From contig DAOTYD010000072.1 of assembly GCA_034435295.1 (NCBI GenBank), positions 1 to 52,228 on the forward strand: DNA of 52,228 nt, given 5' to 3'. Below, in pieces: positions 3,020 through 51,690 of the stretch (positions are counted from its first letter, which is position 1; every line of letters begins with the position of its first letter). Below the pieces are notes generated by a model. The model searched no databases and was not told the origin of the DNA. It saw only the letters and a list, made by a program, of their open reading frames with translations. Source of the stretch: Anaerolineae bacterium. Lineage in GTDB: Bacteria > Chloroflexota > Anaerolineae > B4-G1 > DUEL01. The translations under genes were made by a program, and so were the position numbers.

Positions 3020-3757
3020 ATGAACGTAACGGTCGTGATCCCCACCTACAACGAGGCCGAGAACGTCGAGGCGATGGCCGAGGCGCTGTGGGGCCTGGGC
3101 ATCCCTGACCTGCACGTCCTCATCGTCGATGACGAATCGCCCGATGGGACCGGGGCCATCGCCGACCGGCTGGCAGAGGAAAACCCGGGCCGGCTGAGCG
3201 TGTTGCACCGCAGCGGACCGCGCGGCCTGGGCCGCGCCTATGTCGACGGCTTCCGCTGGGCCCTCCAGCACGGCGCCGACGCCATCGTGCAGATGGACTG
3301 CGACTTTTCCCACGCCCCCGCCGACGTGCCGCGCCTGCTGGCCCACCTCCCTGACTATGACGTCGTCATCGGTTCGCGCTATGTCAGGGGGGGGCGGACC
3401 GACGAAAAGTGGAGCTTTGGGCGGGTGCTGCTTTCGTGGTGGGCCAACTTTTACGCGCGGGTCATCCTGGGCTGCCGCGTGCGCGACATCACCGCCGGCT
3501 TCAAAGCCTGGCGGCGCCAGGCCCTGGCGGGCATCGACCTGGACTGCATTTTCTCGCAGGGCTATGTCTTCCAGGTCGAGATGATCTATGTCGCCGAGCG
3601 GCTGGGCTACCGCATCCTGGAGGTGCCCATCTACTTCGAAGACCGGCGCATCGGCCGTTCCAAGATGACCATGCCGGTCAAGTTCGAGGCGGCCTGGCGG
3701 GTATGGCAGGTGCGCTGGCGACACCGCCATCTGCAACCGCGCCACGGAGAGGTATGA
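3020..3757 (+). CDS. GT2 polyprenol-phosphate glycosyltransferase (dolichyl/undecaprenyl-phosphate mannosyl- or glucosyl-transferase type, Ppm1/GtrB/CsbB-like)
   Basis: [15 protein letters not shown].., VDDESPDGT and DCDFSHAP (DxD-type) motifs. The stop overlaps the next ATG (ATGA at 3754-3757). Confidence 0.8.
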
Positions 3758-6700
3758 TCCGCCGACTGCTTCCCACCGCCGTCGCCGCGCTCATCCTGCT
3801 GCTGCTGCCCCTGCTCCTCTTTGCCCCCGTCGCCCTGGGCAACCGCACGCTGCTTCCCGTCGACGCCCTCTTCCTCTTCGAGCCGTACCGCGCTGCCGCC
3901 GCTGAGCTGGGCGTGACGAGGGTGCAAAATGGCCTGGTTGCCGACCTGATCCTGGAAAACTATGCCTGGAAGCGCTTTATCCTGCAGGCGCTGCAGAACC
4001 ACGAGCTGCCGCTGTGGGATCCCTACATCTTTGCTGGCCATCCCTTTCTCGCCAACGGCCAGCACTCGGCCCTCTATCCGCTGAGCGTCGTCTTTTACGT
4101 CCTCCCGCTATGGCGGGCCTTTGGCGTGTTTGCCTGGCTGCAACTGGGGCTGGCCGGCCTGTGGACCTATCTCTTCGCCCGCGTGCTGGGCATCCGCCGG
4201 CTGGGCGCTCTGCTGGCCGGCATCGTCTTCCAGTTCAGCGGCTTTATGGTCGTGTCGGTGGTCCACCCCATGATCATCGCCGGGGCCTCGTGGCTGCCCT
4301 TTATCCTGGCGATGGTCGAACTGATCGTCCGCCAGCGCCCGGCGCTGGGCCAGCGACCGTCCAGCCTGCCCTGGGCGCTGCTGGGAGCGGTCGGCCTGGG
4401 CTGCCACATGCTTGCCGGGCACGCCGAGAACACCTACTTTGTCCTGCTGGTCACGGCGCTGTATGTGGCCTGGCGGCTGAGCGGGCTGTTCGTCGGCGCG
4501 CTGCGCGAGCACAGGGCCGCTGGCGCAGCGCGGCGGCTGGCGCGGCCGCTGTTCTGGCTGGCGCTGATGCTGATCCTGGGGCTGGCCCTCGGCGCGGTCC
4601 AGTTCATTCCCCTGTACGAGGTCGCGGCAGATAGCTTCCGCTCCGGCGAGGCAGCGGCGACGCTGGCGCAGGTGCGCGGCTGGGCTTATCCCCCCCGCCG
4701 CCTGATCACCTTTGGCATTCCCAACTTTTTCGGCAACCCGGCCCACCACAGTTACTTTGACCTTTTCCAGTGGCGCACCGTGCCCGTCACCACGAACGCC
4801 TACGACCACCCCATCGACAGCACCGACTGGGGGATCAAGAATTATGTCGAGGGCGGCGCCTACCTGGGACTGCTGCCATTGCTGCTGGCGGTGTTGTCTA
4901 TCGCGTATCGCCCATCGCTTATCGCTTATCGCCCATCGCTTATCGCTTATCGCAAATCACACATCGCGGCAAGCGATACGCGATATGCGATAGGCGATAC
5001 GCGATATGCCGTTCTCTTCTTCACCCTGCTCAGCCTCTTTTCCCTCGGCTGCATCTTTGGCACGCCGCTCTATGCCCTGGTCTATGCCCTGCCCTACATC
5101 AGCCAGTCGCACTCTCCCTTCCGTTGGGTCTTTCCGCTGACGCTCTCGGTGGCAGTGCTGGCGGGGTTCGGGGTCGAGGAGGTGCGCAGACGGAATGGGG
5201 CGCAAGGGGTAAGGAGTGAGGAGCAAGGGACAAAGGGCAAGGGACAGGGGACAGCGGGCAGGTGGTTTCTTCTCGGCGCGTCGCCCTCGCTGGTCAGCGC
5301 GTTGGCGGCGCTGGCGTTCTGGGGCGGCCTGCTGACGCTGGCGGGGCTGGCGCTCAGCCGGCTCTTTTTCGCCCAGATCGAGCCGCTGGTGGAGCGCCTC
5401 TTCCTCGGCCTGGCGCTGGCGCCCAACGCCTTCCCCGACCACCGCGCCTTTTATTCCTACGAGTTCAAATGGATCGCTCTCTTCGGCCTGTTGCTCGCCG
5501 GGACGGGCATCGTCCTGCGTCTCAGCCGCTGCCCGATCACCCTGAAGCGACGGCCGCTGTGGGAGTTTCTGGCGCTGGGCCTGCTGGTCGTCGATATGGT
5601 CTCGTTCGGCGCGGGATTCCACCCCGCTGTCGACCCGGCGCTGCTCGACTATACCCCGCCCGTGGTCGAATTTCTGCGCCAGGACACGACCCTCTGGCGC
5701 TATGCCACCTTCACCCCGCCCGGCACGACCAAGACGATGAACGCCAACACAGGGATGTTCTACAACCTGCAGGCCGTCAACGGCTACGACTCGCTCTTTT
5801 CGCGCCAGTACGCCGACTATATGGGCCTGATCGAGGAACAGGACGAGTTGCAGTACAACCGCATCGCCTCGTTCAGCGACTGGTCGAGCCTGGACAGCCC
5901 GCTCATGGACCTCCTCAACGTCAAGTACATCCTCAGCGAGGTCGAAATCCCCAACCCGGCCAAATACCGCCTGGTCTACCGCGACGAGTCGCTCTATGTC
6001 TACGAGAACCTGGCGGCGATGAGCCGTGCGTTCACCCTGCCGGCGTCGGCGGCGGTGGTCATGCAGGACGTGGCCACGGCGCTGCGCACGTATGACCCGC
6101 ACCAGTTTGTGGTCCTGGAGAGAGAAGCGCCAGCCGCGCCAGCCGCCCCCCAGCCGGCCACGGCAACTCCCCAGACGGTCGTCGAGTACACGATGGACCA
6201 GGTGACGGTCGACGCGACGCTGGCCGGGCCGGGCTGGCTGGTGCTGGGCGACTCGTACTTTCCCGGCTGGAAGGCGTTCGTGCGGCCACAGGGAGCCGGC
6301 CCAGAGGCCGAGCGGGAGGTCGAGATCCTCCGCGCCGACGGCAACTTTCGCGCCGTCTTTCTGGAGGCAGGCGCGTGGACCGTTCGTTTCAAGTACAGCC
6401 CCAACAGCGTCAAGGTTGGCGCCTTTGTCTCTTTCATCGCCGCGATGACGCTGCTCTTCTTGAGCGGCCTCTACCTGTGGCGCTTTTTCTACCGCGAGGA
6501 GGACGACGCCAGCACGGTGCGGCGCGTGGCCAAGAACTCGCTGGCGCCGATCGTGCTCAACCTGTTCAACCGCGCCATCGAGTTTGCCTTTGCCGCGCTG
6601 GCGGCGCGCATCCTGGGGCCGGTGGGCAACGGCCGCTTTGCCACGGCAGCCAACATCTACATCTGGTTCGACATTATCGCCAACTTTGGGCTGGACATGT

Positions 6701-7980
6701 ACCTGATGCGCGAGGTGTCCAGCGACCGCAGCCGCGCGCGGCGGCTGCTGGTCAATACGAGCGTCCTGCGCCTGCTGCTCTACCTGGCGGCGGCGCCCGT
6801 CCTGGCCGCCTTCCTGGGCGGCTGGCAGGGATTGGGCTCGCCGCTGGCCGACGAGACGCTGTGGACGGTGGCTCTGCTCTACATCGGCCTGCTGCCGAAC
6901 ACCTTTGCCTACGGACTGGCGGCCCTCTTCCGCGGTTTCGAGAAACACGAGATCCCCGCCGCCATTCAGACGGTGACGACAATTGTCAAGGTGACGCTGG
7001 GGGTGCTGGCGCTGGTCGCCGGGCTGGGCATCCGCGGCATCGCCGGCGCGTCGGTCCTGACCAACGGGACGACGCTGCTCATCCTGGCCGTGCTGGCGCG
7101 GCGGCTGATCTGGCCGCACCTGCCGCCAGCGCGGGAGCGCGTCGCCTGGCCGCTGCAGCGCCTGATGCTGGCCGAGAGCTGGCCGCTGATGGTCTCGTTT
7201 CTCCTGCAATACCTCTTCCCCGGCATCAACATCCTGCTCCTGCAGCGGCTGCAAGGCGACGCCGTGGTTGGCTGGTACGATGCCGCCCGCAAATGGGTCG
7301 ACGCGCTGAATCTGATCCCGTCGGTTTTTACCTTCGCCGTCTTTCCGGTCATCTCACAGCAAGCGGCGCATGACCGCCTCGCCATGCGCCGCACCTATCA
7401 CCTGTCGGCCAAGCTGCTGCTGATCGTGGCCCTGCCAGCGGCGGTGCTCGTCAGCCTGCTGGCGACGCCGCTGGTCGGCCTGCTCAGCGGGGCCGCCTTC
7501 CTACCCGACGGCGCCATCGCCCTGCGCCTGCTGATCTGGTCGATCCCCTTGGGCTGGATCAACAGCCTGACCAACTATGCGCTGATCGCGCTCAACCGCC
7601 AGCGCTACGTCCTGGTCGCTTCGGGGGCACGGGTCTTTTTTACCCTCGTGGCGAATCTGTTGCTGGTGCCGCGCTGGAGCTATACGGCCTCGGCGTGGAT
7701 CATGATCGGCGGCGAGTTGCTGCTGGCGATCCTCTTCTACCTCGGCCTGCGCCGCCAGACGGGGCCGGTGGCCTGGGGAGCGATTGGGGTCCGCCCTCTC
7801 CTGGCCGGCCTGGCGATGGCTGCCGTGGCCTGGCTGCTGGCTCCCGTCAGCCTGGCGCTGGCGCTGGTGGCGAGCGCGGCGATATATCCGCTCGCCCTGC
7901 TCCTCCTGCGCGCCCTGGACGCGGAGGAGCGGGCCGCGCTTTCCCCCCTGCTGCCCGCTCCCCTGCGCCGCGAACGCTGA
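3754..7980 (+). CDS. Fusion protein: YfhO-like GT-C membrane glycosyltransferase (about aa 1-920) fused to a MOP/Wzx-type polysaccharide flippase (about aa 920-1408)
   Basis: The N-terminus resembles YfhO ([23 protein letters not shown], many TM segments). From about 6510 the sequence is [38 protein letters not shown], typical of Wzx/RfbX. No stop codon lies between the two parts. The RBS is ggagagg. Two in-frame repeat tracts are inside (4899-5009 and 5202-5257). Confidence 0.7.
4899..5009. repeat. Heptamer tandem-repeat hairpin (atcgcNN x8, then inverted gcgatNN x5) inside the YfhO fusion CDS
   Basis: The left arm tatcgcgtatcgcc (4899-4912) is the exact complement of ggcgatacgcgata (4993-5006). 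Period 7 nt. It is translated as [38 protein letters not shown]. Confidence 0.85.
5202..5257. repeat. Purine-rich degenerate heptamer tract (8 x 7 nt) inside the YfhO fusion CDS
   Basis: gcaaggg gtaagga gtgagga gcaaggg acaaagg gcaaggg acagggg acagcgg, translated as [20 protein letters not shown]. Confidence 0.7.
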
Positions 7981-17819: not shown

Positions 17820-19097
17820 CTACGAGAGGCACTCCGCCAGGGCTTTTCCAAACGCAGCGACAGCCGTCTCGATCTGTTCTTGATTGACGATCAGCGGCGG
17901 GATCCAGCGGACGACGTTGTCATACGTGCCGCAGGTGAGCAACATCAACTGGTGCTTGAGGGCGGCCTTGACGGCAGACTTGGCCACGGCGGTGGCCGGC
18001 GCGCCGTCGGCCCCGGTGAACTCGGCACCGACCATCAGCCCCAGCCCGCGCACGTCGCCGATGATGGGAAACTCTGCCTGCAACGCCTGCAACCGCTCGA
18101 TGAGCAGCGCGCCCATGCGTTGCGCGTTCTCCAGCAGCCCCTCCTCGCGCATGACGCGGATGGTGGCGACAGCGGCGGCGCAGGCGACGGCGTTCCCGCC
18201 GTAGGTGCCGCCATGCGAGCCGGGAATCCACTTCTCCATCAGTTCCCGTCGCGCCGCCACGCCGGAGAGCGGCAGGCCAGAAGCCAGCCCTTTGGCCATC
18301 GTCATGATGTCCGGCACCACGCCAAAGTGCTCGAAGGCGAACCAGCGGCCGGTGCGCCCGAAACCGCACTGGATCTCATCGGCAATGAGCAGGATGCCGT
18401 GCTCGTCGCAGATGCGGCGCACCCCCTTGAGGAAACCCGGCGGCGGCACCAGGTAGCCCCCTTCCCCCACCACCGGCTCGATCAACATTGCCGCGGTCTC
18501 GAAGGGAGCAGTCTGGCTCTTCAGCAGGAACTCGAGTTCACGCAGGCAGAACCGTTCAGCCTCCTCTGGGCTCCAGCCGTAGCGGTAGTAGTAGGGATAG
18601 GGAGCGACAAAGACCCCCGCTGGCAGCGGCTGGTAGCCGGCGCGGTAGATGGTCTTGGAGGTGGTGAGGGCCATGGTCATGCCGGTGCGGCCGTGGAAGC
18701 TGCCCTGGAAGACGATGATGTTGGGCCGGCCGGTGGCGTGGCGAGCCAGTTTGACCGCTCCCTCGATGGCCTCCGCGCCGCTGTTGGAGAAGAAGAAGCA
18801 GTCGAGCGCTGGCGGCACGATAGTGCGCAGTTCGCGCACCAGCTCCAGCAGCGGCTTGTGGTAGACGATGTTGACCTGGCCGTGCAGCAGCTTCGCCGCC
18901 TGCTCCTGCACCGCCTGCACGACCTTTGGGTGGCAGTGGCCAGTGTTGGTCACGCCGATGCCGCAGGTAAAGTCCAGGTAGCGGCTGCCGTCCTGGTCAT
19001 AGACATAGGCCCCCTCCGCCCGCTCAGCGATGATGGGCGTGTAGCGGGGCCAGATGGGGGAGATGAGTTTCTCCACGTCGGGGGAGAGGTTGGTCAT
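17820..19097 (-). CDS. Class-III PLP aminotransferase, 4-aminobutyrate/omega-amino-acid type
   Basis: The motifs are GIGVTNTGHCHPKVV, LIADEIQCGFGRTG and the PLP lysine in DIMTMAKGLASG. The start is at MTNLS with RBS aaggagga. The upstream extension to 19145 is encoded by the octamer repeat. Confidence 0.85.
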   Translation of the reverse strand: MTNLSPDVEKLISPIWPRYTPIIAERAEGAYVYDQDGSRYLDFTCGIGVTNTGHCHPKVVQAVQEQAAKLLHGQVNIVYHKPLLELVRELRTIVPPALDCFFFSNSGAEAIEGAVKLARHATGRPNIIVFQGSFHGRTGMTMALTTSKTIYRAGYQPLPAGVFVAPYPYYYRYGWSPEEAERFCLRELEFLLKSQTAPFETAAMLIEPVVGEGGYLVPPPGFLKGVRRICDEHGILLIADEIQCGFGRTGRWFAFEHFGVVPDIMTMAKGLASGLPLSGVAARRELMEKWIPGSHGGTYGGNAVACAAAVATIRVMREEGLLENAQRMGALLIERLQALQAEFPIIGDVRGLGLMVGAEFTGADGAPATAVAKSAVKAALKHQLMLLTCGTYDNVVRWIPPLIVNQEQIETAVAAFGKALAECLS

Positions 19098-19117
19098 AGG
19101 TCCTCCTTGGAAAGTGT

Positions 19118-19165
19118 GCAAGTATGCAAGTATGCAAGTATGCAAGTATGCAAGTAAGCAAGTGG
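19118..19165. repeat. Octamer tandem repeat (gcaagtat x4, gcaagtaa, gcaagtgg)
   Basis: Read directly. It lies 20 nt upstream (minus sense) of the aminotransferase start codon. It shares the gcaagt core with the pheT in-frame repeat. Confidence 0.9.
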
Positions 19166-25270: not shown

Positions 25271-25340
25271 TTTCGTGTTGCGTGTTGCGTGGTGCGTGAC
25301 GCGTGCCACCACGGAACACGCACCACGCAACACGTCACCC
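25271..25340. repeat. Heptamer-array hairpin with an 18-bp stem
   Basis: gtgttgcgtggtgcgtg (25282-25298) is the exact reverse complement of cacgcaccacgcaacac (25317-25333), plus one flanking C-G pair. The arms are tgcgtgN / cacgcaN heptamers. Confidence 0.9.
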
Positions 25341-31422: not shown

Positions 31423-31444
31423 CGCGTCAACAACCGGATCATGA

Positions 31445-31725
31445 CAAAGGCTGTGACGGAGAGAGTGGGCGGGACCTTTGGGACGCCAGGGAGGTGGGGC
31501 CTGAGACTGGAAGCCTCACCCGAACAAAGCCGCTGAAGTTCGCTCCCGAGCCGACGGGTGAAACCGCGTTGGCGGCAAGTAGCCCGCTCCGCAGGCCCGG
31601 CGTTATCGGGGCAGCCGATTGCGGTCCGACCGCCGTCGGCGCAAAGAGGGCTCGATACGAGCCAGGCGGGGTGGTACCGCGGGAGCCAGCGCTCTCGTCC
31701 CCACGGGCGAGGGCGCTTCTGTTAT
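31445..31725 (+). promoter_or_regulatory. T-box leader (tRNA-sensing riboswitch), specifier UUC = Phe
   Basis: gtga K-turn region at about 31453, AGAGAGU at 31460-31466, CUGAGA distal loop at 31501-31506, specifier GAAG-UUC-G (UUC at 31539-31541), F-box-like gcgttat, T-box core ggGGTGGTACCGCGGga at 31668-31684, and a terminator stem 31688-31699/31706-31717 followed by tctgttattc. Confidence 0.8.
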
Positions 31726-31762: not shown

Positions 31763-32307
31763 ATGTACCTGGCCTACCTTGATGAGTCGGGAGACACTGG
31801 CTTGGTGAACAGCCCAACGGCCTATTTTGTCTTGAGCTGCGTCCTGGTTCACGAGTCGAACTGGCTTGAGTCCCTGAATTGCAAAAAGGAGCAGCCGAAA
31901 AAGGATGGGAAGCCCGTTATGCCGCCTGGACGTTTGCGTTACAGCGCATCAATCGCTTCTGCGAAGGTCAGGAATGGGCCATGATTTTCCCTGACCAGGG
32001 ACACGGTTTCTTTATCCGCAGAAGGTTACGTCACATGCGCCGGTATCACAACGTGCCTCGCCATTGGGGAGGCGGGACGATAGCATTCCCCATCCACAGG
32101 ATCGTCGAGGACCCAAATGAGCGAGAGTCACAAGACTCCTATTTCATCCAACTGGCGGATTGGAACGCTTACGCCGCATTCCATTCCCAATATGTTTCGC
32201 CTATTCGGAGCGTGCCCGCTGACCTCTGGGACGAACTGGGTAACCTGTTTGTAAAAGAGGTGAACGCAGTCCGAGGCGGCCCGCCGGGTATCGTGCTATA
32301 CCCCTAA
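31763..32307 (+). pseudogene. DUF3800-family gene interrupted by a +1/-1 frameshift
   Basis: The N-terminal part MYLAYLDESGDTG..FVLSCVLV is in frame 2 (31763-31984). The C-terminal part ..SQDSYFIQLADWNAYAAF is in frame 1 (31870-32307). The switch is near the A5 runs at about 31883-31903. GC is visibly lower than the flanks. Confidence 0.6.
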
Positions 32308-32468: not shown

Positions 32469-33491
32469 ATGGATGAGAAGCTAACACAAATCCAGGATCA
32501 GGCTTTATCCGCTTTGGAAGCAGTCCAACACGCCGACGCGCTGGCCGAGTGGCACCGCCGCTACCTGGGCAAAAAAGGCGAACTGACCCAACTGCTCCGT
32601 TCGGTCAAGGACCTGCCGCCCGAGCAGCGTCCCGCCTTTGGCCAGGCCGCCAATGAAGCCAAGGCAGTGCTGGAAGCCGCCTATCAGGCCCGCCTTGAGG
32701 CGCTGCGCCAGGAGGAACTGATGGAGGAACTGCAGCGCGGCGCCCTCGACGTCACCCTGCCCGGCCGCACCACGCCCCCCGGCCACCTCCACATCACCAC
32801 CCAGACGCTGCGCCAGATCTATGCCATCTTTGCCGAGATGGGCTTTCAGGTCTATGAAGCGCCCGACGTGGAGACCGACGAGCTCAACTTTGGCCTGCTC
32901 AACATGCCTCCCCACCACCCGGCCCGCGATATGTGGGACACCTTCTGGATCAGCGAGGGGGTGCTGCTGCGCACGCACACCTCGCCGGGCCAGATCCGCG
33001 TCATGCGCGAGCGCTGCCCCGAACCCATCCGCGTCATCCTCCCCGGCAAGTGCTACCGCTACGAGCAGATCACAGCCCGCTCCGAACACCAGTTCTACCA
33101 GGTCGAAGGGCTGGCGGTAGGCCACAACATCACCATGACCGACCTGATCGGCACGCTGAGCCAGTTTGCCCGCCGCTTTTACCGCACCGAAGGGCGCCTG
33201 CGCATCCGCAGCTCCTACTTCCCCTTCACCGAGCCCAGCATCGAAGCGGACATCGACTGCATCCTCTGCGGCGGCAAGGGCTGCCGCGTCTGCAAATACT
33301 CCGGCTGGCTGGAAATCGCCGGCGCGGGAATGGTGCATCCGGTGGTGCTCGAAAACGGCGGCTATGACCCCGCCGAATGGAGCGGCTTTGCCTTCGGCCT
33401 GGGCGTCGAGCGCCCCGCCATGCTCAAGTACGACATCGACGACATCCGCCTCTTTTACGACAACGACCTGCGCTTCCTGCGCCAGTTCTGA
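32469..33491 (+). CDS. pheS: Phenylalanine--tRNA ligase alpha subunit
   Basis: 340 aa with the class II aaRS motifs HPARDMWDTF, LLRTHTSPGQIR and GAGMVHP..FAFGLGVERPAML. Confidence 0.95.
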   Translation: MDEKLTQIQDQALSALEAVQHADALAEWHRRYLGKKGELTQLLRSVKDLPPEQRPAFGQAANEAKAVLEAAYQARLEALRQEELMEELQRGALDVTLPGRTTPPGHLHITTQTLRQIYAIFAEMGFQVYEAPDVETDELNFGLLNMPPHHPARDMWDTFWISEGVLLRTHTSPGQIRVMRERCPEPIRVILPGKCYRYEQITARSEHQFYQVEGLAVGHNITMTDLIGTLSQFARRFYRTEGRLRIRSSYFPFTEPSIEADIDCILCGGKGCRVCKYSGWLEIAGAGMVHPVVLENGGYDPAEWSGFAFGLGVERPAMLKYDIDDIRLFYDNDLRFLRQF

Positions 33492-33512
33492 CACGGCAGA
33501 AGGAGACAAGCA

Positions 33513-36116
33513 ATGAAAATCCCCCTGTCCTGGCTCAAAGAATACGTCGACATCGACCTGCCCATCCCCGCCCTGGCCGAACGGCTGACGCTGGCCGGCC
33601 TGGAAGTGGAAACGGTCAACTATATCGGCCTGCCGGGCGCGGCGCTGCCGTGGGACCCCGACAAGATCGTCATCGGCGAGGTCGTCGCCGTCCATCCGCA
33701 CCCCGAAGCCGACCGCCTGGTGCTGGCCGAGGTGAACTATGGCGGCCCCGAAACCGAGGTGGTCGTCTCCGGCCCGCCCAGCCTGAAGCGGATCGAAGGG
33801 CAGAGCGGGCTGCACCTCAAAGTGGCCTTTGCCTTCGAGGGCGCCCGCCTGTGGGACCCCTATTCCGCCGAGCCGCAGATCAAGACGCTGAAAAAGTCCA
33901 AAATCCGTGGCGTCGTCTCGCGGGCGATGGTCTGCTCGGAAAAAGAGCTGGGCCTCTCCGACGAGCACGAGGACATCATCTACCTGCCCGACGACGCGCC
34001 GGTCGGCATGCCGCTGGTCGATTACCTGGGCGACGCGGTGCTCGAGTTCGACATCAAGGGGCCGTTTGCCCATCTCTACTCGGTCGTCGGCGTGGCCCGC
34101 GAGGTGGCAGCGCTGCTGGGCGTGCCGCTGCGACGCGACGCGCTGGAGGTGCTGGAGCGCCACCCGGCCGGGTTGACCGCTACCCCCTCTTTCATCGAAC
34201 TGGAGATCGCCGATCCCGACCTCTGCCCGCGCTACTCGGCAGCGATGATCCGCGGCGTGACGGTGCGCCCATCGCCGCTGTGGATGCAGATGCGCCTGCG
34301 TTATGCCGGCATGCGCCCGATCAACAACATCGTCGACGTCACCAACTATGTGATGCTCGAACTGGGCCAGCCGCTGCACGCCTTCGACTACCACGTCCTG
34401 CGGGCGCGACCGGGGGCAGAGACGCCCGCCATCATCGTCCGCCGCGCCCGCCCCGGCGAGCAGATGCGCACGCTCGACGGCGAGCTGCGCACCTTCGACA
34501 GCGAAATGCTGCTCATCACCGACGGCGGCGGGCCGGTGGCAGTGGCCGGCGTCATGGGCGGCCTGGAAAGCGAGATCACCGACGCCACAACCGACATCCT
34601 GCTCGAATCGGCCAACTTTCACTTCCTCAGCATCCGCCGCACCTCGCGCCTGCTGGGGCTGGCCAGCGAGTCGAGCGTGCGCTTTGGCCGGCGGGTCGAC
34701 CCCGAGCTGACGGTCAAAGCAGCCGCCCGCGCCGCTCACCTCATGGTCGAACTCGGCGGCGGCACGGTCGTCCCCCTCATCGGCGACCTCTACCCCGGCC
34801 GCCAGCCGCAGCGGGTCATCGAGCTCGACCCCGCCTACGTCGCCCGCATCCTGGGCATCGAGATACCGGTCGAGGAGATAACGCGCATCCTCACCTCGCT
34901 GGAGTTCGAAGTGGGCAAGGAGGCAAGTGAGCAAGTGGGCAAGGAGGCAAGTGAGCAAGTGGGCAAGTCGGCAAGTACGCAAGAACCTGCAAACTTGCAG
35001 ACTTGCAAACTTGCAAACATCCCCGCGTCTCCCCCTCTCCGCGTCTCCATTCCCTCCCACCGCCAGGACGTCACCCGCCCGGTGGACCTGATGGAGGAAG
35101 TGGGGCGCATCTGGGGCTATGACCGCTTCCCGGCGACGCTCATCCGCGACGAGATGCCGCCGCAACGGGCCAATCCTCGCCTGGAAGGGATCGAACGGCT
35201 GCGCGACCTGCTGGTCGGCCTGGGCCTTGACGAGGTCATCACCTATTCGCTGGTTGACGCCGAAGAGGAGCGTCCCTTCCATCCCCCCGCCGCGCCCTTC
35301 GACGCAGAGAGATACCTGCGCCTGCGCAACCCCCTCTCCAGCGACCGCTCCGCCCTGCGCCAGACGCTGCTGCCTTCGCTGCTGCACGTCGCGCGCAAAA
35401 ACCTGCGCTTCCTCGACCGCGTCGCCGTGTTCGAGATCGCCGCGGTCTATCTGCCGGTGGAGGGACAGACCCTGCCCGAAGAGCCGCGCCGGCTGGGCAT
35501 CGTCATGACCGGCCCCCGCGAGGAGCGTTCGTGGATCGCCGGGCAGGACCGCTCGCCGATGGGCTTTTACGAGCTGAAGGGCGTGGTCGAGACGCTGCTG
35601 GCGCGCCTGGGGGTGGAGGGGACGTTCGTTCCGCACCAGCACCCGGCTTTCCACCCCGGCCGCTGCGCCCGGCTGCACATCGGTGAGCAGACGCCCGGCG
35701 TGATGGGCGAGCTTCATCCGCAGGTGCGAGAAGCTTTCGGCCTGCCCTCCCAGCCCGTCTGCGCCCTCGAGTTCGATCTGGAGGAGCTGTTGGCCGCCGG
35801 CGACCGGGCGCGCAAGATGAAGCCCATTTCCACCCATCCGCCGGTCTACGAGGACCTGGCGGTGGTGGTGGACGAGGCGCTGCCGGCGGCGAGTGTGTAC
35901 CGGGTCATCATGCAGGCTGGCGGCGCGTTGCTCCGTTCGGCCGAACTGTTCGATGTCTACCGTGGCGAGCAGATCGGCGCCGGGCGCAAGAGCCTGGCTT
36001 ACCGCCTCACCTACCAGGCCGACGACCGCACCCTGACCGATCAGGACGCCAGCAAATTGCGCGCCAGGATCGTGCGCACGCTGGAGCGCGAGCTGGGCGC
36101 AGCGCTGCGCGGCTAG
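33513..36116 (+). CDS. pheT: Phenylalanine--tRNA ligase beta subunit (with an in-frame repeat insertion)
   Basis: MKIPLSWLKEYVD.., tRNA-binding, B3/4, B5 and FDX-ACB domains are recognisable (IPSHRQDVTRPVDLMEEVGRIWGYD; KSLAYRLTYQ). RBS aggaga is present. Confidence 0.95.
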   Translation: MKIPLSWLKEYVDIDLPIPALAERLTLAGLEVETVNYIGLPGAALPWDPDKIVIGEVVAVHPHPEADRLVLAEVNYGGPETEVVVSGPPSLKRIEGQSGLHLKVAFAFEGARLWDPYSAEPQIKTLKKSKIRGVVSRAMVCSEKELGLSDEHEDIIYLPDDAPVGMPLVDYLGDAVLEFDIKGPFAHLYSVVGVAREVAALLGVPLRRDALEVLERHPAGLTATPSFIELEIADPDLCPRYSAAMIRGVTVRPSPLWMQMRLRYAGMRPINNIVDVTNYVMLELGQPLHAFDYHVLRARPGAETPAIIVRRARPGEQMRTLDGELRTFDSEMLLITDGGGPVAVAGVMGGLESEITDATTDILLESANFHFLSIRRTSRLLGLASESSVRFGRRVDPELTVKAAARAAHLMVELGGGTVVPLIGDLYPGRQPQRVIELDPAYVARILGIEIPVEEITRILTSLEFEVGKEASEQVGKEASEQVGKSASTQEPANLQTCKLANIPASPPLRVSIPSHRQDVTRPVDLMEEVGRIWGYDRFPATLIRDEMPPQRANPRLEGIERLRDLLVGLGLDEVITYSLVDAEEERPFHPPAAPFDAERYLRLRNPLSSDRSALRQTLLPSLLHVARKNLRFLDRVAVFEIAAVYLPVEGQTLPEEPRRLGIVMTGPREERSWIAGQDRSPMGFYELKGVVETLLARLGVEGTFVPHQHPAFHPGRCARLHIGEQTPGVMGELHPQVREAFGLPSQPVCALEFDLEELLAAGDRARKMKPISTHPPVYEDLAVVVDEALPAASVYRVIMQAGGALLRSAELFDVYRGEQIGAGRKSLAYRLTYQADDRTLTDQDASKLRARIVRTLERELGAALRG
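34915..35017. repeat. Octamer tandem-repeat hairpin (gcaagNNN x9, then NNNcttgc x3-4) inside pheT
   Basis: An exact 24-nt duplication (34911-34934 = 34935-34958). The inverted arm is cctgcaaacttgcagacttgcaaacttgcaaa. It is translated as GKEASEQVGKEASEQVGKSASTQEPANLQTCKLAN. Confidence 0.9.
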
Positions 36117-36129
36117 AGGCGGCGATCCG

Positions 36130-37386
36130 ATGGGCCGCATCTGGCGCTGGTTCTGGCGGAGGCTCGACCTCTGGCTCGTGTTGTTGCTGCTCCTCTTCCT
36201 TCTCCAGGCGGAGGGGCCGCCGCCGGGCGCGCTCTCTACACGGCTGGATCGTTTTACCGCTGACCTGCGCTTCAACTTCTGGAGTTGGGAGGCGGAGGCG
36301 CTGGCGGGCAAGCTGGCCCACTGGCTGGTGCAGCCGCAGCGCTACATGAGCGAAGCCGACCGCACCGCCTTTGTGCGCGATTACGCTGCCCAGATCGAGC
36401 AGATCTGGTCGCTCCAGCGGCAGATCGAGACGATCTATGCCGATCCGGCAGTCGCCGATCCCGACGTTCAGGCGGCCGATCTGCGCCAGGCGCTGGAGGA
36501 GCTGCGCGCGCGGATGGCATGGCGGCAGCCGGTCTTTGAGGCGATCATCGAGGAGCAGGTCAGTGTTGCCCTGGCCGACGAGGGCCTGGACATCCTGGGC
36601 CAGCCCTTCCCGCCCGTGGGGGCGCGCTTTACGCCGCTGCCCTACGCCCTCATCGTCTCCCCCCGCGAGCGCATCGAGACGATCTACAGCCAGCACCTGC
36701 AGCACGGGCTGGACGCGGCCCAGCAGACGGCAATCGAGTCGCGCATCGATGAGACTTTCGACGTCTCATCCTACGTGACCGCCATCGGCGGCCTGTCGGC
36801 CTGGCCGGCGATGATGCTGGAGCATTCGTACCTGCCGTGGGTGATGGAGGTCGCCGCCCACGAGTGGACGCACCACTATCTCTACCTTCACCCCCTGGGC
36901 TGGCGCTACGACCGCAGCCAGGAAGCGCGGACGATCAACGAGACAACGGCCTCCATCGTGGGCAAGGAGGTTGGACGGGCGGTCGTGGCGCGCTACTATC
37001 CCGACCTGCTGCCGCCGGAGGAGACGGCCACGCCGCAGCAGCCACAGGAGCCGCCGGCTTTTGACTTTCGCCGCGAGATGCACCTGACGCGGGTGGAGGT
37101 GGACCGGCTGCTGGCCGAGGGCCGGATCGAGGAGGCCGAGGCGTATATGGAAGCGCGGCGTCTCTTTTTCTGGGAGAACGGCTACCGCCTGCGCAAGCTC
37201 AACCAGGCCTATTTCGCCTTCCACGGCTCGTATGCCGACGAGCCGGGCGCGGCGGGCGAGGACCCGGTCGGCCCGGCGGTGCAGCGCCTGCGGGCGCAGA
37301 GCGCCTCTCTGCGCGCCTTTCTGACGCGCATCGACGCGATCACGTCGCTGGCGGAGCTGGAGGCGATGCTGGCAGAAGCGCCGTAG
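36130..37386 (+). CDS. Hypothetical membrane-anchored protein with HExxH motif (putative metallopeptidase)
   Basis: The N-terminal TM is LWLVLLLLLFLL and the motif is AAHEWTHHY. It lies 13 nt downstream of pheT. Confidence 0.45.
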   Translation: MGRIWRWFWRRLDLWLVLLLLLFLLQAEGPPPGALSTRLDRFTADLRFNFWSWEAEALAGKLAHWLVQPQRYMSEADRTAFVRDYAAQIEQIWSLQRQIETIYADPAVADPDVQAADLRQALEELRARMAWRQPVFEAIIEEQVSVALADEGLDILGQPFPPVGARFTPLPYALIVSPRERIETIYSQHLQHGLDAAQQTAIESRIDETFDVSSYVTAIGGLSAWPAMMLEHSYLPWVMEVAAHEWTHHYLYLHPLGWRYDRSQEARTINETTASIVGKEVGRAVVARYYPDLLPPEETATPQQPQEPPAFDFRREMHLTRVEVDRLLAEGRIEEAEAYMEARRLFFWENGYRLRKLNQAYFAFHGSYADEPGAAGEDPVGPAVQRLRAQSASLRAFLTRIDAITSLAELEAMLAEAP

Positions 37387-37407
37387 GACGGCGCTTGCGG
37401 GGCTGCC

Positions 37408-38904
37408 TTACTGCCAGCCGCGGACGAACTCGATCAGCAGGCGCACGCCAAAACCGGATGCCTTCCCTCTGGCGATGTAGGGATGTTCCTTTTCCCCCAC
37501 CGCCATGCCCGCCATGTCGATGTGCGCCCAGGGGTAAGAGACAAAGCGCTTGAGGAACGTCGCCGACGCCCCGACGCCGGGGAACTTTTCCCTGCTGCTG
37601 TTGACCACATCGGCGGTGTCCGACTCGATCATCTTCTCGTATTCGGGAAAGAGCGGCAGCGGCCAGAGCCGTTCTGCCGTCCTGGCTGAGGCGGCCAGCA
37701 GCGCGTCGCGCAGGGCGTCGTCGTTGCTGAACAGCCCGGCAGCGACGCCGACGCCCAGGGCGGTCATGCACGCGCCGGTCAATGTGGCAATGTCAACCAC
37801 GGCAGTGGGCTGGAAGCGCGCGGCATAGACGAGGGCATCGGCCAGCAGCAACCGCCCCTCGGCGTCGGTGCTGACAACCTCGATGGTGGTGCCGTTGCTG
37901 GCGGTGATGACTTCCTGCGGGCGGTAGGCGCGGCTGCCGATCATGTTGTCGGCGGCCGGCGCCAGGCCGACGACGTGGAGGGGCAGGTCGAGCGCGGCGA
38001 CCGCCTGCATCGCGCCGATGACGGCGGCGGCCCCGGCCATGTCCACCTTCATGTTCGCCATCCCTTCCCGCGTCTTGAGGTCATAGCCGCCCGTGTCAAA
38101 AGTCACCCCTTTGCCGACAAGGACGACGGTCTTGAGGTCGGCGGCGCGGTCGGCGTTGTGTTCGAGGACGATAAAGCGGGGCGGCGTGTCGCTGCCCTGG
38201 GCCACGGCCAGCAGCGCGCCCATCTTGAGCGCCTCCATCTGCTTGCGCTCCAGCACCTCGACGCGCAGGCCGCTCTGCTGCGCCATCTCGACGGCGACCT
38301 GGGCCAGGTAAGCGGGCGTGCAGATGTTGGGCGGCAGGTTGACCAGGTCGCGGGTCAGGGCGACGGCGGTGGCAACGACCTGCCCTCTGGCGGCGCCCTC
38401 CGCTGCAGCAGCCATCTCGGCCTCGTCCGACGCCATCAGTTCCAGGCTCTGCGGCAGAGCTGGCGGCGGGGGAGCGGTCTTTTGGCCGTGGTAGCTATAG
38501 AGCCCCAGCTCGCTCCCCTCCACCGTCGCCTGAGCGGCCTGTTCAGCGGGGAGCTTGCCGGTGCCGTGCAGGACGGAAGCCAGGCGGGAGACTTGGAGCT
38601 CGCGGGCCTTTTTGGCAGCGACGGCGGCCGCCTGGCGGACAGCGTCGGCGTCGAATGTTTCCGCCGCGCCCAGGCCGACCAGGATGACGCGGCGGGCGGG
38701 GATGGCGCCGCGTGGGTAGAGCACGGCGATCTGTTGGGCCTTGCCGCCGAAATCGCCGCTGGCGATCAGCCCGGCGACGGCACCTCCCAGCGCCTCATCT
38801 ACAGCTTTGACAGCGCCTTCGAGCGGTGCGCCCTCGAACAGGCTCAGCACGATCCCGTCGGCATCGCTGGCCTGGATGGGGCCGTAGAGGACCTCGATTT
38901 GCAT
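37408..38904 (-). CDS. pepA: Leucyl aminopeptidase (M17)
   Basis: The motifs are VLVGKGVTFDTGGYDLK, NMKVDMAGAAAV and VSTDAEGRLLLADAL (M17 signature). Confidence 0.9.
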   Translation of the reverse strand: MQIEVLYGPIQASDADGIVLSLFEGAPLEGAVKAVDEALGGAVAGLIASGDFGGKAQQIAVLYPRGAIPARRVILVGLGAAETFDADAVRQAAAVAAKKARELQVSRLASVLHGTGKLPAEQAAQATVEGSELGLYSYHGQKTAPPPPALPQSLELMASDEAEMAAAAEGAARGQVVATAVALTRDLVNLPPNICTPAYLAQVAVEMAQQSGLRVEVLERKQMEALKMGALLAVAQGSDTPPRFIVLEHNADRAADLKTVVLVGKGVTFDTGGYDLKTREGMANMKVDMAGAAAVIGAMQAVAALDLPLHVVGLAPAADNMIGSRAYRPQEVITASNGTTIEVVSTDAEGRLLLADALVYAARFQPTAVVDIATLTGACMTALGVGVAAGLFSNDDALRDALLAASARTAERLWPLPLFPEYEKMIESDTADVVNSSREKFPGVGASATFLKRFVSYPWAHIDMAGMAVGEKEHPYIARGKASGFGVRLLIEFVRGWQ

Positions 38905-38973: not shown

Positions 38974-39075
38974 GCGAGGATTTCCAACAGTGGGGCTGCG
39001 ATAGCTTTCCTCTTTCCCGCAAACTATGCTATACTATATCACGAAACCAACTCCCAGAAGGTGTGTTTCGTGTCG

Positions 39076-39897
39076 ATGAATATAACAGAATTAGGCCCCA
39101 GAGAAGCCGAGTTCCTCTCCCGGCTGGCCGGCGAGGGGCGGTCGGTCTTTACCGTCAGGCAGGCGCGCCGTTTCTGGGGCAACCCGGCCTATACGACCAA
39201 CGTGCTGGGCCGCCTGGAAAACAAGGGCTGGCTGCGCCGCCTGGAACGCGGCACGTACCTGATCATCCCACTGGAGGCCGGCCCCACCCGTGACTGGTCG
39301 GAGAGCGCGCTCGTGCTCGCGCCGTACCTGATCCAGCCAGCCGCTATCGCCTATTGGTCGGCGCTGCACTTTTGGAACATGACCGAGCAGATCCCCGACA
39401 CGTTCTTTGTCCAGTCCACCCGCCGCAAGCACCGCCGCCAGATCGAGGTGCTGGGTGTGCCCTTCCGCTTCGTCACCATCCCCGAGGCCCGTTTCTTTGG
39501 CGTGGCCCAGCGCACCCTCGACGGCAAGTCGATCTACGTCACCGATCGCGAAAAGACTCTGCTCGACGCTGCCGACCGCCCCGACTTGAGCGGCGGAATC
39601 GGCCAACTGGCACACGCGCTGCGCGCGGCCTGGAGCGACGTGGACTGGCCGCGGCTCGACGAGTACCTGGCCCGTTGGGGCATGGGCAGCCTGGTCAAGC
39701 GACTGGGCTACCTGGTCGAAACGCTGGAACTGCCGCTGCCCGACCGCGAGGAGCGGCTGGCCCGCTGGCAATCGGCGCTGACCGCCGGCATCGCGCTGCT
39801 CGAAAGCCGCAGCGGTCACAGCGGCCGCATCGTGACGCGCTGGCGGCTGCGCGTGAACGTGGCCGAGACCTGGCGCGGCGGGGAGGCCGGGCCATGA
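39076..39897 (+). CDS. abiEi: AbiEi-family type IV toxin-antitoxin antitoxin / transcriptional regulator
   Basis: The N-terminal wHTH-like part is FLSRLAGEGRSVFTVRQARRF..VLGRLENKGWLRRLERGTY, and the C-terminal AbiEi_4-like part is IAYWSALHFWNMTEQIP. In-frame GTG starts at 39061 or 39070 are also possible. An extended -10 (tgctatact) is at 39027-39035. Confidence 0.7.
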   Translation: MNITELGPREAEFLSRLAGEGRSVFTVRQARRFWGNPAYTTNVLGRLENKGWLRRLERGTYLIIPLEAGPTRDWSESALVLAPYLIQPAAIAYWSALHFWNMTEQIPDTFFVQSTRRKHRRQIEVLGVPFRFVTIPEARFFGVAQRTLDGKSIYVTDREKTLLDAADRPDLSGGIGQLAHALRAAWSDVDWPRLDEYLARWGMGSLVKRLGYLVETLELPLPDREERLARWQSALTAGIALLESRSGHSGRIVTRWRLRVNVAETWRGGEAGP

Positions 39898-40631
39898 TCA
39901 GCGAGGCCGAACTGCGCCGCCTGGCGGCGCGCTGGGGCGTCGACCCGATGGTGGTCGACCTGGATTATAGCCTGGGCTGGTTCATCGCCGCGCTCTACAG
40001 CGCCAACGCGCTCGCCGATCGGCTGTGCTTCAAAGGCGGCACCGCCCTGCGCAAGTGCTATTTCGCCGATTATCGCTTTTCCGAGGACCTGGATTTTACC
40101 GCGCTGGCGCGCGTCGAACCCGACCAACTCCTGAGATGGGTCGAGCGCGCCGCGCGCTGGGCTGCGGAAGCGAGCGGCCCTGACTATCGCGCCGCCCCGC
40201 CGCGCCTGGAGGTCCTCCGCGACGAATACGGCAGCGAGAGCTACCAGGTGCGCGTCTATTACCGCGGGCCGCTGCACTGGAGCGGCGACCCGCGGGCGAT
40301 CCGTCTGGACGTGACCCGCGAGGAACGGCTGCTGCTACCGCCTACGACATCTACCGCCTGGTTCGATCCGGCGTGACGGCCGCCGACGTCGCGCCGCTGC
40401 TGGAGCAAGTTCCAGGCGCGCGGCCTGGACGTCGAGACCATGGCTGTCGAACCGCTCGCCGCCCGGCGCGCGGCCTTTGAGGACGACTGGGCGCGCCGCC
40501 TCAGTCACCTGGTGCGCGACGCCAACGCTGTGACTTTCGAGACCGCCTGGCAGACAGCCGTGACGCTGCTGCAACAGGCAGTGGAACGCCTGGGCCTGCC
40601 GCCCGACCCACAGGAGGCGAACCGCCCATGA
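39894..40631 (+). pseudogene. abiEii: AbiEii-family nucleotidyltransferase toxin, internally deleted and frameshifted
   Basis: The N-terminus is intact (CFKGGTALRKCYFADYRFSEDLDF) up to a stop at 40374. The YDIYRLVRSGVTAADVAPLLEQ segment is in another frame (from 40343). The C-terminal fragment MAVEPLAARRAAFEDDW is again in the first frame (40440-40631). It starts by ATGA overlap with abiEi. Confidence 0.65.
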
Positions 40632-40707
40632 CCCACCCAGACGACCTTGCCGCTTTTCTCGCCCGCCCCTACGACCCCGCCACGGACGACTGCCGCCACC
40701 CGCCCTG

Positions 40708-41150
40708 CTCCCGCCGGGTCTGTGACCCCCGCCGGGCCTCCACTGGCGGGGGTCGCAGATCCCTGCCGGGCAAGGGATGCCCCACGTCGGCGTTCTGCTA
40801 CACCCCCCTGGTGTAGGACAACTGCTCGCAGTTGTCCTACGAACTGTGCGGGTCACAGAGCCGGCGGGAGCGGGGAGTCATCCGTGTCGCAACGAGATCC
40901 TTCGCTTCGCTCAGGATGACATGGGTTTCGCTCAGGGTGACATGGGTTTCGCTCAGGGTGACATGGGTGTTCGTGGCAAAAAGGTAGAGCGCCCCCCGTC
41001 CTGTTCCCGCCGGGTCTGTGACCCGGCGGCCCCCACCGGCGGCGGTCACAGGCCGCGAAATCCGTGAAATCTGTGTAATCTGTGGCCAAAAAACAGACTC
41101 CCGCCGGGCAAGGGTTGTCCCACGTCGGCGTTCTGCTCCGAACACCCTTC
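40708..41150. repeat. Composite REP/MITE-like array (modules a, b and c)
   Basis: Module a (40708-40802) equals the reverse complement of 14555-14641. Module b is the hairpin gtaggacaactgc/gcagttgtcctac (40813-40841) plus a 21-nt unit cgctcagggtgacatgggttt x3 (40908-40970). Module c (41005-41144) equals 17-43, one 68-bp unit, and 189-238 of the window start. Confidence 0.85.
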
Positions 41151-41226
41151 CAAGAAGGCGACTTGCGAAGAATCAGAGTCGTGGTAGAATATCAATCAGT
41201 AAAAATAGCAGGAACAACGTTAACCC

Positions 41227-41300
41227 GCCGAGGTAGCTCAGCCTGGTAGAGCACCTGACTGAAAATCAGGGAGTCGCCAGTTCAAATCTGGCCCTCGGCA
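41227..41300 (+). tRNA. tRNA-Phe (anticodon GAA)
   Basis: Complete cloverleaf read by hand: acceptor gccgagg/cctcggc, D arm gctc/gagc, anticodon stem cctga/tcagg with loop ctGAAaa, T arm gccag/ctggc with ttcaaat, and discriminator A. The 3' CCA is not encoded (the next bases are cct). Confidence 0.95.
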
Positions 41301-48344: not shown

Positions 48345-48354
48345 GGGGAAGATT

Positions 48355-48420
48355 CTCGCTTCTCGCTTCTCGCTTATCGCTTATCGCGTATCGCGTATCG
48401 CGTATCGCGTATCGCGTATT
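48355..48420. repeat. Heptamer tandem repeat (ctcgctt x3, atcgctt x1, atcgcgt x5) flanked by a 30-34 bp direct duplication
   Basis: The repeat was read directly. The flanks 48321-48354 and 48421-48450 are identical except for a 4-nt indel (gaca), and both contain the ccat that is the PIG-L start codon. Confidence 0.9.
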
Positions 48421-48490: not shown

Positions 48491-48731
48491 GCGCGGACGT
48501 CCCGTCCGCCGCCCTGGGAGCGCGGATGTCCCGTCCGCCGCCCTGGGAGCGCGGACGTCCCGTCCGCCGCCCTGGGAGCGCGGACGTCCCGTCCGCGCCG
48601 TCCGCGCTGCCGGCGGGCGGGGACGCCCGCGATCCCAGGAAACAGGGACGTCCCGTCCGCCGCCCTGGGAGCGCGGACGTCCCGTCCGCGCTGTCCGCGC
48701 TGCGGCGGGCGGGGACGCCCGCGATCCCAGG
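48491..48731. repeat. 29-nt head-to-tail tandem repeat (about 3.6 copies) ending in two long imperfect hairpins
   Basis: The unit gcgcggacgtcccgtccgccgccctggga starts at 48491, 48520, 48549 and 48578. Hairpins cctgggagcgcggacgtcccgtccgc / gcgggcggggacgcccgcgatcccagg lie at about 48571-48638 and about 48663-48731. Confidence 0.85.
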
Positions 48732-51622: not shown

Positions 51623-51690
51623 AAAACGGCTAATCGCTTATCGCATATCGCTTATCGCTTATCGCTTGTCGCTTGTCGCTTGTCGCATAA
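51623..51690. repeat. Heptamer tandem repeat (atcgctt/atcgcat x5, gtcgctt x2, gtcgcat)
   Basis: Read directly. It shares the unit family with 4899-5009 and 48355-48420. A partial inverted copy cagcgataagcgat is at about 51917-51930. Confidence 0.85.

Follow-up and report, generated by a model that had tools for sequence, protein, structure and literature searches.

The gene for the beta subunit of phenylalanine--tRNA ligase (pheT) in an uncultivated Anaerolineae bacterium (Chloroflexota) carries a hairpin of tandem 8-nt units within its coding sequence. It lies on contig DAOTYD010000072.1 of assembly GCA_034435295.1, positions 1 to 52228 of which are the whole stretch of DNA that was analysed and are referred to here as the window (65% G+C). 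The tract is probably a slippage-prone short-tandem-repeat hairpin that occupies a permissive loop of an essential enzyme, is filtered to in-frame steps and lacks a specific function. Arrays of 7-8-nt units occur throughout this lineage of Anaerolineae/Thermoflexia-like genomes, and the tract is one of them; the open reading frame (ORF) shows that it is read in frame within an otherwise intact PheT.

The tract and its position in PheT

The 5' arm of the tract, read from position 34915, consists of the octamers gcaaggag, gcaagtga, gcaagtgg, gcaaggag, gcaagtga, gcaagtgg, gcaagtcg, gcaagtac and gcaagaac, and is followed by an arm of inverted units (Table 1). A preliminary description of this DNA had reported nine gcaagNNN octamers with an inverted arm, which can be read directly in the sequence and with which Tandem Repeats Finder (TRF) agrees; the exact 24-nt duplication that it gave (34911-34934 = 34935-34958) is likewise true. 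TRF describes the direct arm as 3.1 copies of a 24-nt period with 92% matches (34909-34983) and the inverted arm as 4.4 copies of the 8-nt period AACTTGCA (34984-35018). The inverted arms at 34946-34981 and 34988-35023 are 36 nt long and 75% complementary, with a gap of 6 nt. In a scan of the window, the pattern GCAAGN3GCAAGN3GCAAG was found 12 times, against 0.00 expected from 100 dinucleotide shuffles, and all of these matches fall in the pheT tract or at 19118-19162. The mRNA segment 34900-35030 folds with -46.7 kcal/mol (z = -2.6), and the in-frame reading of the tract is the peptide GKEASEQVGKEASEQVGKSASTQEPANLQTCKLAN.

The host gene has the features of a complete PheT. Pfam assigns B3_4, B5, tRNA_synthFbeta, FDX-ACB and tRNA_bind to the ORF, i.e. 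all five PheT domains. The protein has 7998 homologues; beyond its own 90% cluster, the nearest of them show about 75% identity and carry the names Thermoflexia, Anaerolineae or Chloroflexota. The preliminary description had placed an insertion of about 35 residues just before a conserved block of the B5 domain. The in-frame insertion stands; its position has to be revised to one inside B5, as the B5 match (PF03484, E = 1.4e-18) is split by the tract into two stretches.

Structural modelling points to the same location. A full-length AlphaFold2 (AF2) model of PheT, built from 22 close sequences, was set aside with a predicted local distance difference test (pLDDT) score of 42.5, and a B5-only model of residues 425-556, built from 47 aligned sequences, was used instead. 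In this model, the B5 core reaches a pLDDT of 87-94 and the insert about 48-52, without secondary structure; the elements follow in the order strand, helix, helix, strand (LEFEV), insert, strand (RVSIP), helix. A Foldseek comparison of the model with the PDB gives PheRS beta chains for each of the best 30 matches, with a probability of 1.00 for 4p71, 2rhs, 1pys and 2iy5. In the alignment to Pseudomonas aeruginosa PheT, the gap for the tract falls at residues 438-445 of that protein. The tract thus lies inside B5 at the tip of a beta-hairpin (the 'wing'), to which it adds about 34 residues.

At the DNA level, the tract differs from its surroundings, with a G+C content at third codon positions (GC3) of 0.54 vs 0.89 in the rest of pheT. 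Each 8-nt unit is read in the three frames in turn, and the unit read as aag-NNN is gcaagGAG, since gcaagTGA in that frame would bring in a TGA stop. In its +1 frame, the tract is interrupted by stop codons. Self-identity is 0.92 at a lag of 24 nt vs 0.77 at a lag of 8 nt. The first unit, gaagtggg, coincides with the native EV codon pair behind the conserved EF, and the second copy of the direct duplication tccccgcgtctcc / tctccgcgtctcc, which follows the tract, encodes the native LRVS strand.

Length variation, exchange and related arrays

Relatives are named here by their recovered pheT loci (L numbers) or PheT proteins (P numbers). The closest of them differ from the window in the length of the tract. 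L090 (L090/L001) aligns with window positions 33386-37915 (4530 nt); apart from 4 mismatches, the only difference is one gap of 24 nt, which corresponds to the removal of one three-unit block from the tract; the encoded protein (P0124) has 859 aa instead of 867 aa and is otherwise identical. As the sole strain-level change observed is exactly three units, the frame is kept. P0123, encoded on two other contigs (JGI/ENA data), has 867 aa and one substitution, which lies inside the array. L002 and L003, whose PheT is 94-95% identical in amino acids, retain one degenerate unit and a short inverted arm, and L004 (PheT 75% identical) has 15 octamers and 4 inverted units. Across relatives, octamer counts of 2, 6, 9 and 15 are found, and all variants translate to a full-length PheT with the reading frame kept; no frameshifted variant occurs among the recovered contigs.

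Farther away, the loop is short and free of repeats. The segment from SLEF to PSHR has 13-14 residues in most distant Chloroflexota, e.g. EVEEQGEMLRVTV, and 9-66 residues in the close clade, whose members share a PheT identity of about 67% or more with the window. Many of these members have a loop of basal length or shorter, the shortest being that of P0070 (9 aa). The proposal that the segment is specific to a lineage or strain is thus borne out by its repeat-free counterpart in distant orthologues, and the suggested copy-number variation by the 24-nt difference between near-identical strains. A homologous peptide encoded by non-repetitive DNA, which would have spoken for an evolved domain, was looked for in distant relatives and none was found.

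Within the close clade, at least 8 unrelated families of repeat units, gcaagtNN included, occupy this same loop (Table 1). The presence of so many different units at exactly one loop argues for in-place expansion at a permissive hot spot. No peptide is conserved at the loop across the clade, where sequences such as GKEASEQV, PSPST, QSTNLPIY and VTQSP occur, and hydrophilicity is the sole trait that they have in common. Judging from this range of lengths, the B5 wing loop appears to tolerate almost any length. In a neighbour-joining tree of 124 PheT sequences, the loop classes interleave; the tree is star-like and not robust, and no count of origins was drawn from it. Further in-frame inserts, GC-rich and palindromic, were noted at other PheT sites (L006 near 6018, L007 near 1112, L009 near 10628 and 10943), e.g. 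PALSDAEGP encoded by cctgccctgagcgatgccgaagggcc and ALSKVEGLGGTEGG, which suggests that several permissive PheT sites have been colonised by a different class of repeat.

Taken together, lineage specificity, change in copy number, non-coding-like composition and the lack of a conserved peptide indicate that the tract behaves as a DNA repeat and not as an evolved domain. To this extent, the earlier view of a repeat element that had landed in a coding loop is upheld; the discrete, landed element in it is not.

Homologous recombination has also shaped the locus. Between 34836 and 34908, 19 consecutive informative sites are L004-like; past 34908, sites are mostly L004-like, and this pattern ends somewhere between 35027 and about 35140. 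Nucleotide identity between the window and L004 is 0.84-0.99 in residue windows 421-511 (0.80-1.0 at third positions) and 0.79 over the whole gene, and the protein windows agree that the B5 block is L004-like. These data show an array-bearing B5 block that was apparently exchanged between related lineages by homologous recombination, so that the tract can spread between lineages without transposition. Recombination of the whole B5 block is the only movement shown for the tract. A smaller L004-like patch lies near 34050-34180, and L003 and L004 come from one common sample.

Similar constraints on frame and sequence can be seen in relatives. The unit of L004 in the aag-NNN position is gcaagTAT, and its array has a self-identity of 1.00 at lag 24 vs 0.84 at lag 8. 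The coding array at 4899 in the window shows 0.97 at lag 21 vs 0.83 at lag 7, and a 24- or 21-nt super-period is present in both coding arrays of the window and in L004, L018 and L025. The intergenic arrays of the window are most regular at the unit period and have no super-period, and units that are stop-free in every frame (L007) stay homogeneous. In L009 and L029, the array spans the loop from native QV codons to native QVT codons, and the duplication that encodes the LRVS strand is conserved in L002 and L004.

A mechanism can be proposed from these observations. Native (c/g)aagtN codons of EF(E/Q)V would have seeded the array or become merged with it, and its growth and shrinkage would result from replication slippage or unequal exchange. 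In an essential gene such as pheT, a change in length would survive only if divisible by three, and this filter would select three unit variants that avoid stops in their respective frames. The resulting peptide would be a hydrophilic, unstructured surface loop without a specific function, a tolerated passenger that may be neutral or slightly costly.

Arrays of this kind are common in the clade. Outside the pheT loop, they number about 100/Mb in about 400 kb of the close clade vs 54/Mb in more distant Chloroflexota loci. The clade arrays are mostly intergenic although 83% of the DNA was called coding by a crude, GC3-based gene caller, which places starts too far upstream and labelled some intergenic arrays as intragenic; positions at window 22541, window 25274 and L004 5939 were corrected by eye. 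The comparison of GCAAGTNN arrays covers the window and the recovered pheT loci of relatives. Three hairpin arrays are found in the window (4899-5006, 25274-25339 and the pheT tract), and its many other 7-8-nt arrays detected by TRF are mostly intergenic. For instance, the intergenic array with the same gcaagt core that had been described earlier is present, at 19112-19163, and stops some 10 nt upstream of an aminotransferase gene's Shine-Dalgarno sequence (gene at 17820-19100, minus strand). Loci with gcaagt units number two in the 52-kb window and two in L004, and those with tatcgc units three in the window. In the alignment of the window with L002, breaks occur only at arrays, at intergenic segments or at one 2.2-kb insertion.

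The array at 4899-5006 would encode a segment between two hydrophobic stretches, which are putatively transmembrane. This loop is hypervariable in YfhO orthologues, where other repeat peptides occur, e.g. SKSANLQISKSANQQIS. The same ORF (3409-7980) also contains gggacag x3 at 5241-5262. Other repeats in the window include GC-rich 29/93-nt tandem repeats, a 68-nt repeat containing gaaatctgt 9-mers and two more tatcgc-type intergenic heptamer arrays (loci 48491-48731, 27-191, 48353-48419 and 51629-51686). Predicted proteins and contigs frequently stop at or within arrays and carry the annotation 'partial' (L129, L124 and a large number of YfhO homologues); short-read assemblies seem to be broken by the arrays.

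The surroundings of pheST are variable as well. A T-box leader lies upstream of pheST in the window (31444-31705, plus strand), with 58.5 bits for RF00230, which is below the gathering score of 93, E = 2.9e-12 and full model coverage. L004 has kept the terminator of this leader (5880-5925), and between the T-box-like terminator and the pheS ribosome-binding site of L004 stands a hairpin of 260 nt (5940-6197), made of 10 direct and about 22 inverted gcaagt octamers. A DUF3800 gene stands between leader and pheS in the window and L002, truncated in the former (31879-32307, 142 aa vs 248 aa in L002). The spacer between pheS and pheT is filled by (ggagacac)x4.5 in L004 (7231-7266) and has an 87-nt insert with two GC-rich hairpins in L002 (9902-9989), which the window lacks. 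Further downstream, a 2.2-kb segment of the window (38985-41201) is missing in the 95% relative L002, adjoins a tRNA gene (41227-41300) and contains an AbiEi-antitoxin-like gene (39061-39897), a 21-mer x3.2 (40906-40973) and 9-mer repeats (41053-41084). This segment probably represents an integrated element.

Table 1. Repeat tract of pheT, associated features in the window and repeat units at the same loop in relatives
Feature	Location	Strand	Basis
pheT (phenylalanine--tRNA ligase beta subunit), 867 aa, host of the tract	33513-36116	+	ORF, translation, Pfam, homologues
B5 domain, residues ~434-534, tract between strands LEFEV and RVSIP	34812-35114	+	split Pfam match, AF2, Foldseek
Recombinant block (~260 nt) carrying the tract; L004-like, rest of pheT L002-like	34836-35090	+	informative sites, identity windows
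5' arm: nine gcaagNNN octamers, 24-nt (3-unit) super-period	34915-34986	+	TRF, sequence, lag identity
3' arm: ~four inverted NNacttgc units, complementary to the 5' arm	34987-35018	+	TRF, inverted repeats I1-I7, fold
Direct duplication, 16-nt spacing: tccccgcgtctcc / tctccgcgtctcc	35020-35048	+	repeat family D4
In-frame hairpin (tatcgct)x8 + inverted (gcgatac)x5 in YfhO/Polysacc_synt membrane-protein ORF 3409-7980	4899-5006	+	TRF, Pfam
Intergenic array, (gcaagtat)x6.5 on plus strand, (acttgcat)n on sense strand	19112-19163	-	TRF, pattern scan
Intergenic heptamer hairpin, cgtgttg x3.6 / cacgcaa x3.6	25274-25339	.	absent from 95%-identical L002
Loop unit caggtttc + inverted gaaacctg	L005, L010, L012, L015, L151, L091		
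Loop unit ggtaaatt + aatctacc	L018, L025		
Loop unit gtcgcag + ctgcgac	L099, L124		
Loop unit ccaagtta x7, direct-only	L007		
Loop unit cagtcac(c), direct-only	L009, L029		
Loop 15-mers	L006, L098		
Loop unit caaatcag	P0074		protein alone (QISKSANQQIS)

Competing explanations for the tract

Several observations weigh against slippage at a permissive loop as a full account of the tract. Arrays with the gcaagt core stand at non-homologous sites (window 19112; L004 5940-6197, in the pheS leader), and the units gcgataN, cacgcaa, accaatct and tcacgtt recur at unrelated loci in different genomes; with such a shared vocabulary of units, pure local slippage is insufficient as an explanation. A whole hairpin of 85 nt (that of 25274-25339) is found in one of two 95% relatives and missing in the other, whose empty site shows no visible seed. 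The three-unit super-period of coding arrays is not significant when tested over all arrays (Mann-Whitney p = 0.55). Slippage itself is deduced from length variants, and for the L004 array, which is near-perfect at unit level over about 124 nt, the copy number obtained from a short-read assembly may be unreliable. Finally, the tract has been kept in lineages with 25% PheT divergence despite the frameshift load expected of an 8-nt unit, which hints at a low slippage rate or some benefit.

Some of these observations would also fit a discrete non-autonomous mobile element, such as a miniature inverted-repeat transposable element (MITE), a palindrome like those of Rickettsia or an enzyme-moved repeat hairpin, that was inserted in frame in pheT. 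This explanation is unlikely, though not negligible. The hairpin architecture, the AT-shifted composition relative to the genome, the gcaagt core shared with window 19112 and the L004 leader hairpin, the limited vocabulary common to unrelated loci across genomes and the all-or-nothing state of the hairpin at 25274-25339 speak for it, and the shared core elsewhere leaves room for a sequence-directed or mobile component. However, no target-site duplication is found at the flanks of 4899-5006, 25274-25339 or 34911-35018, nor at the empty site in L002. The arrays have neither conserved termini nor a constant length (52 to 260 nt), having only a 6-nt core in common, and their arms differ strongly in length within and between arrays (9/4, 15/4 and 10/22 units). 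The overlap of the first unit with the native EF(E/Q)V codons also argues against insertion, and at least 8 units at one loop would require repeated independent insertions at one codon. In a partial scan against Pfam, covering 13 ORFs of the window, no transposase-like domain was detected.

A directed process has also been considered, in which 'tandem-repeat hairpins' would be built or propagated from a small vocabulary of 7-8-nt units, colonise 5' leaders and permissive loops, and move between species on recombining blocks. In such leaders, arrays may typically end just upstream of the ribosome-binding site, and the leader and pheT arrays of L004 could couple at the RNA level. This scenario is speculative and is given a low probability.

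It is improbable that the insert is adaptive, either as a new PheRS surface for interaction or localisation or as an mRNA or DNA hairpin that controls pheT by pausing of translation, by mRNA decay or by pairing with a gcaagt array in the pheST leader. Its retention across 25% PheT divergence, the spread of the B5 block by recombination and the occurrence of the gcaagt unit in L004 both inside pheT and in the pheS leader, just behind the T-box-like terminator, speak for it. The hairpin form also recurs at the loop in four unit families, with fold z-scores of -2.3 to -7.3; however, no fold is obtained for the direct-only arrays of L007, L009 and L029 (z > 0). Covariation was examined in caggtttc/gaaacctg, the hairpin class with the best sampling (6 sequences); a single compensatory pair among 25 and a covariation term of +0.75 lend no support to a selected RNA structure in this class. 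Scans of the tract itself yielded no Rfam family at the gathering threshold and no promoter- or terminator-like signal. An adaptive surface is further at odds with the lack of peptide conservation, the modelled disorder of the insert, the length differences between near-identical strains and the many clade members with basal or shorter loops, down to the 9 aa of P0070.

A mis-assembled or chimeric repeat is very improbable: repeats are error-prone in short-read assemblies and related contigs, e.g. L129, end inside arrays, but P0123 has the same 867 aa bar one array residue on two other contigs, ordered variants occur in other assemblies, the perfect repeat of 48 nt should fall below typical read length, the frame is intact and the flanks are collinear.

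Known repeat systems and implications

The pheT case combines features of known repeat systems. Heptamers of the short tandemly repeated repetitive (STRR) type have reportedly been described in cyanobacteria (Mazel in 1990, Elhai in 2008). In Chloroflexus aurantiacus, dispersed satellites derive from heptamers, with (GATAGRA)n at 22 loci (PMC6749651), and TAACTGA heptamer arrays stand next to start codons in Beggiatoaceae and cyanobacteria (PMC4679880). According to literature summarised in the latter study, units divisible by three are the usual kind in coding regions (PMC4679880). Like these 6-9-nt simple sequence repeat (SSR) and variable-number tandem repeat (VNTR) families, the arrays described here consist of head-to-tail 7-8-nt units, with the same unit at two or three loci within the 52-kb window; they are mostly intergenic, often just upstream of a ribosome-binding site, and variable in copy number. 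The pheT tract has the excess of head-to-tail copies, the whole-unit strain differences and the preserved frame of a coding SSR or VNTR. Unlike those families, it lies in an essential housekeeping gene, is kept in frame by a three-unit super-period and has an inverted arm.

In-frame repeats that create disordered regions are also known from Borg elements, in which all intragenic units are divisible by three (PMC9879509). The amino-acid tandem repeats (aaTRs) of Borgs resemble the pheT tract in that they are fast-evolving and recent ORF repeats that leave the frame unbroken, produce disordered regions and recur in homologous proteins. In contrast, the pheT unit has 8 nt (7 nt at 4899), so that only three-unit blocks are in frame, the tract has an inverted arm, and its host is an essential enzyme on a bacterial chromosome.

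Palindromic repeats within genes are another point of comparison. Rickettsia palindromic elements (RPEs) were reportedly described by Ogata in 2000. They are regarded as selfish palindromic DNA that stands in frame in protein-coding genes (PMC10969869). The tract is similar to them as lineage-specific hairpin DNA of non-coding character that is translated in frame at a surface site of a housekeeping protein. RPEs are 100-150 bp long and have a full-length consensus and many copies, whereas the pheT tract shares only a 6-nt core with other arrays, is fluid in length and has arms made of tandem arrays. In terms of RPEs and MITEs, it is an in-frame palindrome at a permissive site that has no fixed-size consensus and no terminal inverted repeats with target-site duplication.

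Geobacter metallireducens has four tandem heptanucleotides within and between genes, with paired inverted sets of three tandem repeats (PMC2700814). Short tandem units in and between genes, and direct and inverted sets paired on opposite strands, are shared with the arrays described here. However, the Geobacter elements have a fixed copy number (3-5 units) and are proposed binding sites for a regulator, and neither copy-number variation nor in-frame translation in an essential gene is described for them (PMC2700814). Two other candidates were rejected. Repetitive extragenic palindromic (REP) sequences and REPINs, which are conserved imperfect palindromes of 20-40 nt in doublets with an associated RAYT transposase, do not fit, as the pheT arms are tandem 8-mers without a conserved REP sequence and a partial scan, covering 13 ORFs of the window, revealed no Y1 transposase. 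A phase-variable contingency locus does not fit either, as the host is a full-length PheRS beta subunit and not a dispensable surface or restriction-modification gene. Literature searches for such repeats in Anaerolineae found no specific description. What sets the pheT case apart is a non-triplet unit with an inverted arm in the gene of an essential aminoacyl-tRNA synthetase, a loop that has been occupied again and again, and a recombining block on which the tract was transferred.

For metagenomics, such arrays would explain contig breaks and, as they evolve fast, provide a means to tell strains apart in a poorly known Anaerolineae/Thermoflexia group. As a natural permissive site, the PheT B5 wing could serve for engineered insertions. 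More broadly, disordered loops can be made from raw, non-coding-like repeats in an essential enzyme of otherwise high conservation, with intermediate states of 2, 6, 9 and 15 units preserved in related strains. A non-triplet unit can persist in an essential gene, where selection would filter changes to three-unit steps and sculpt stop-avoiding variants. If the vocabulary shared among unrelated loci reflects a dedicated mechanism, this would represent a new kind of repeat propagation in bacteria.

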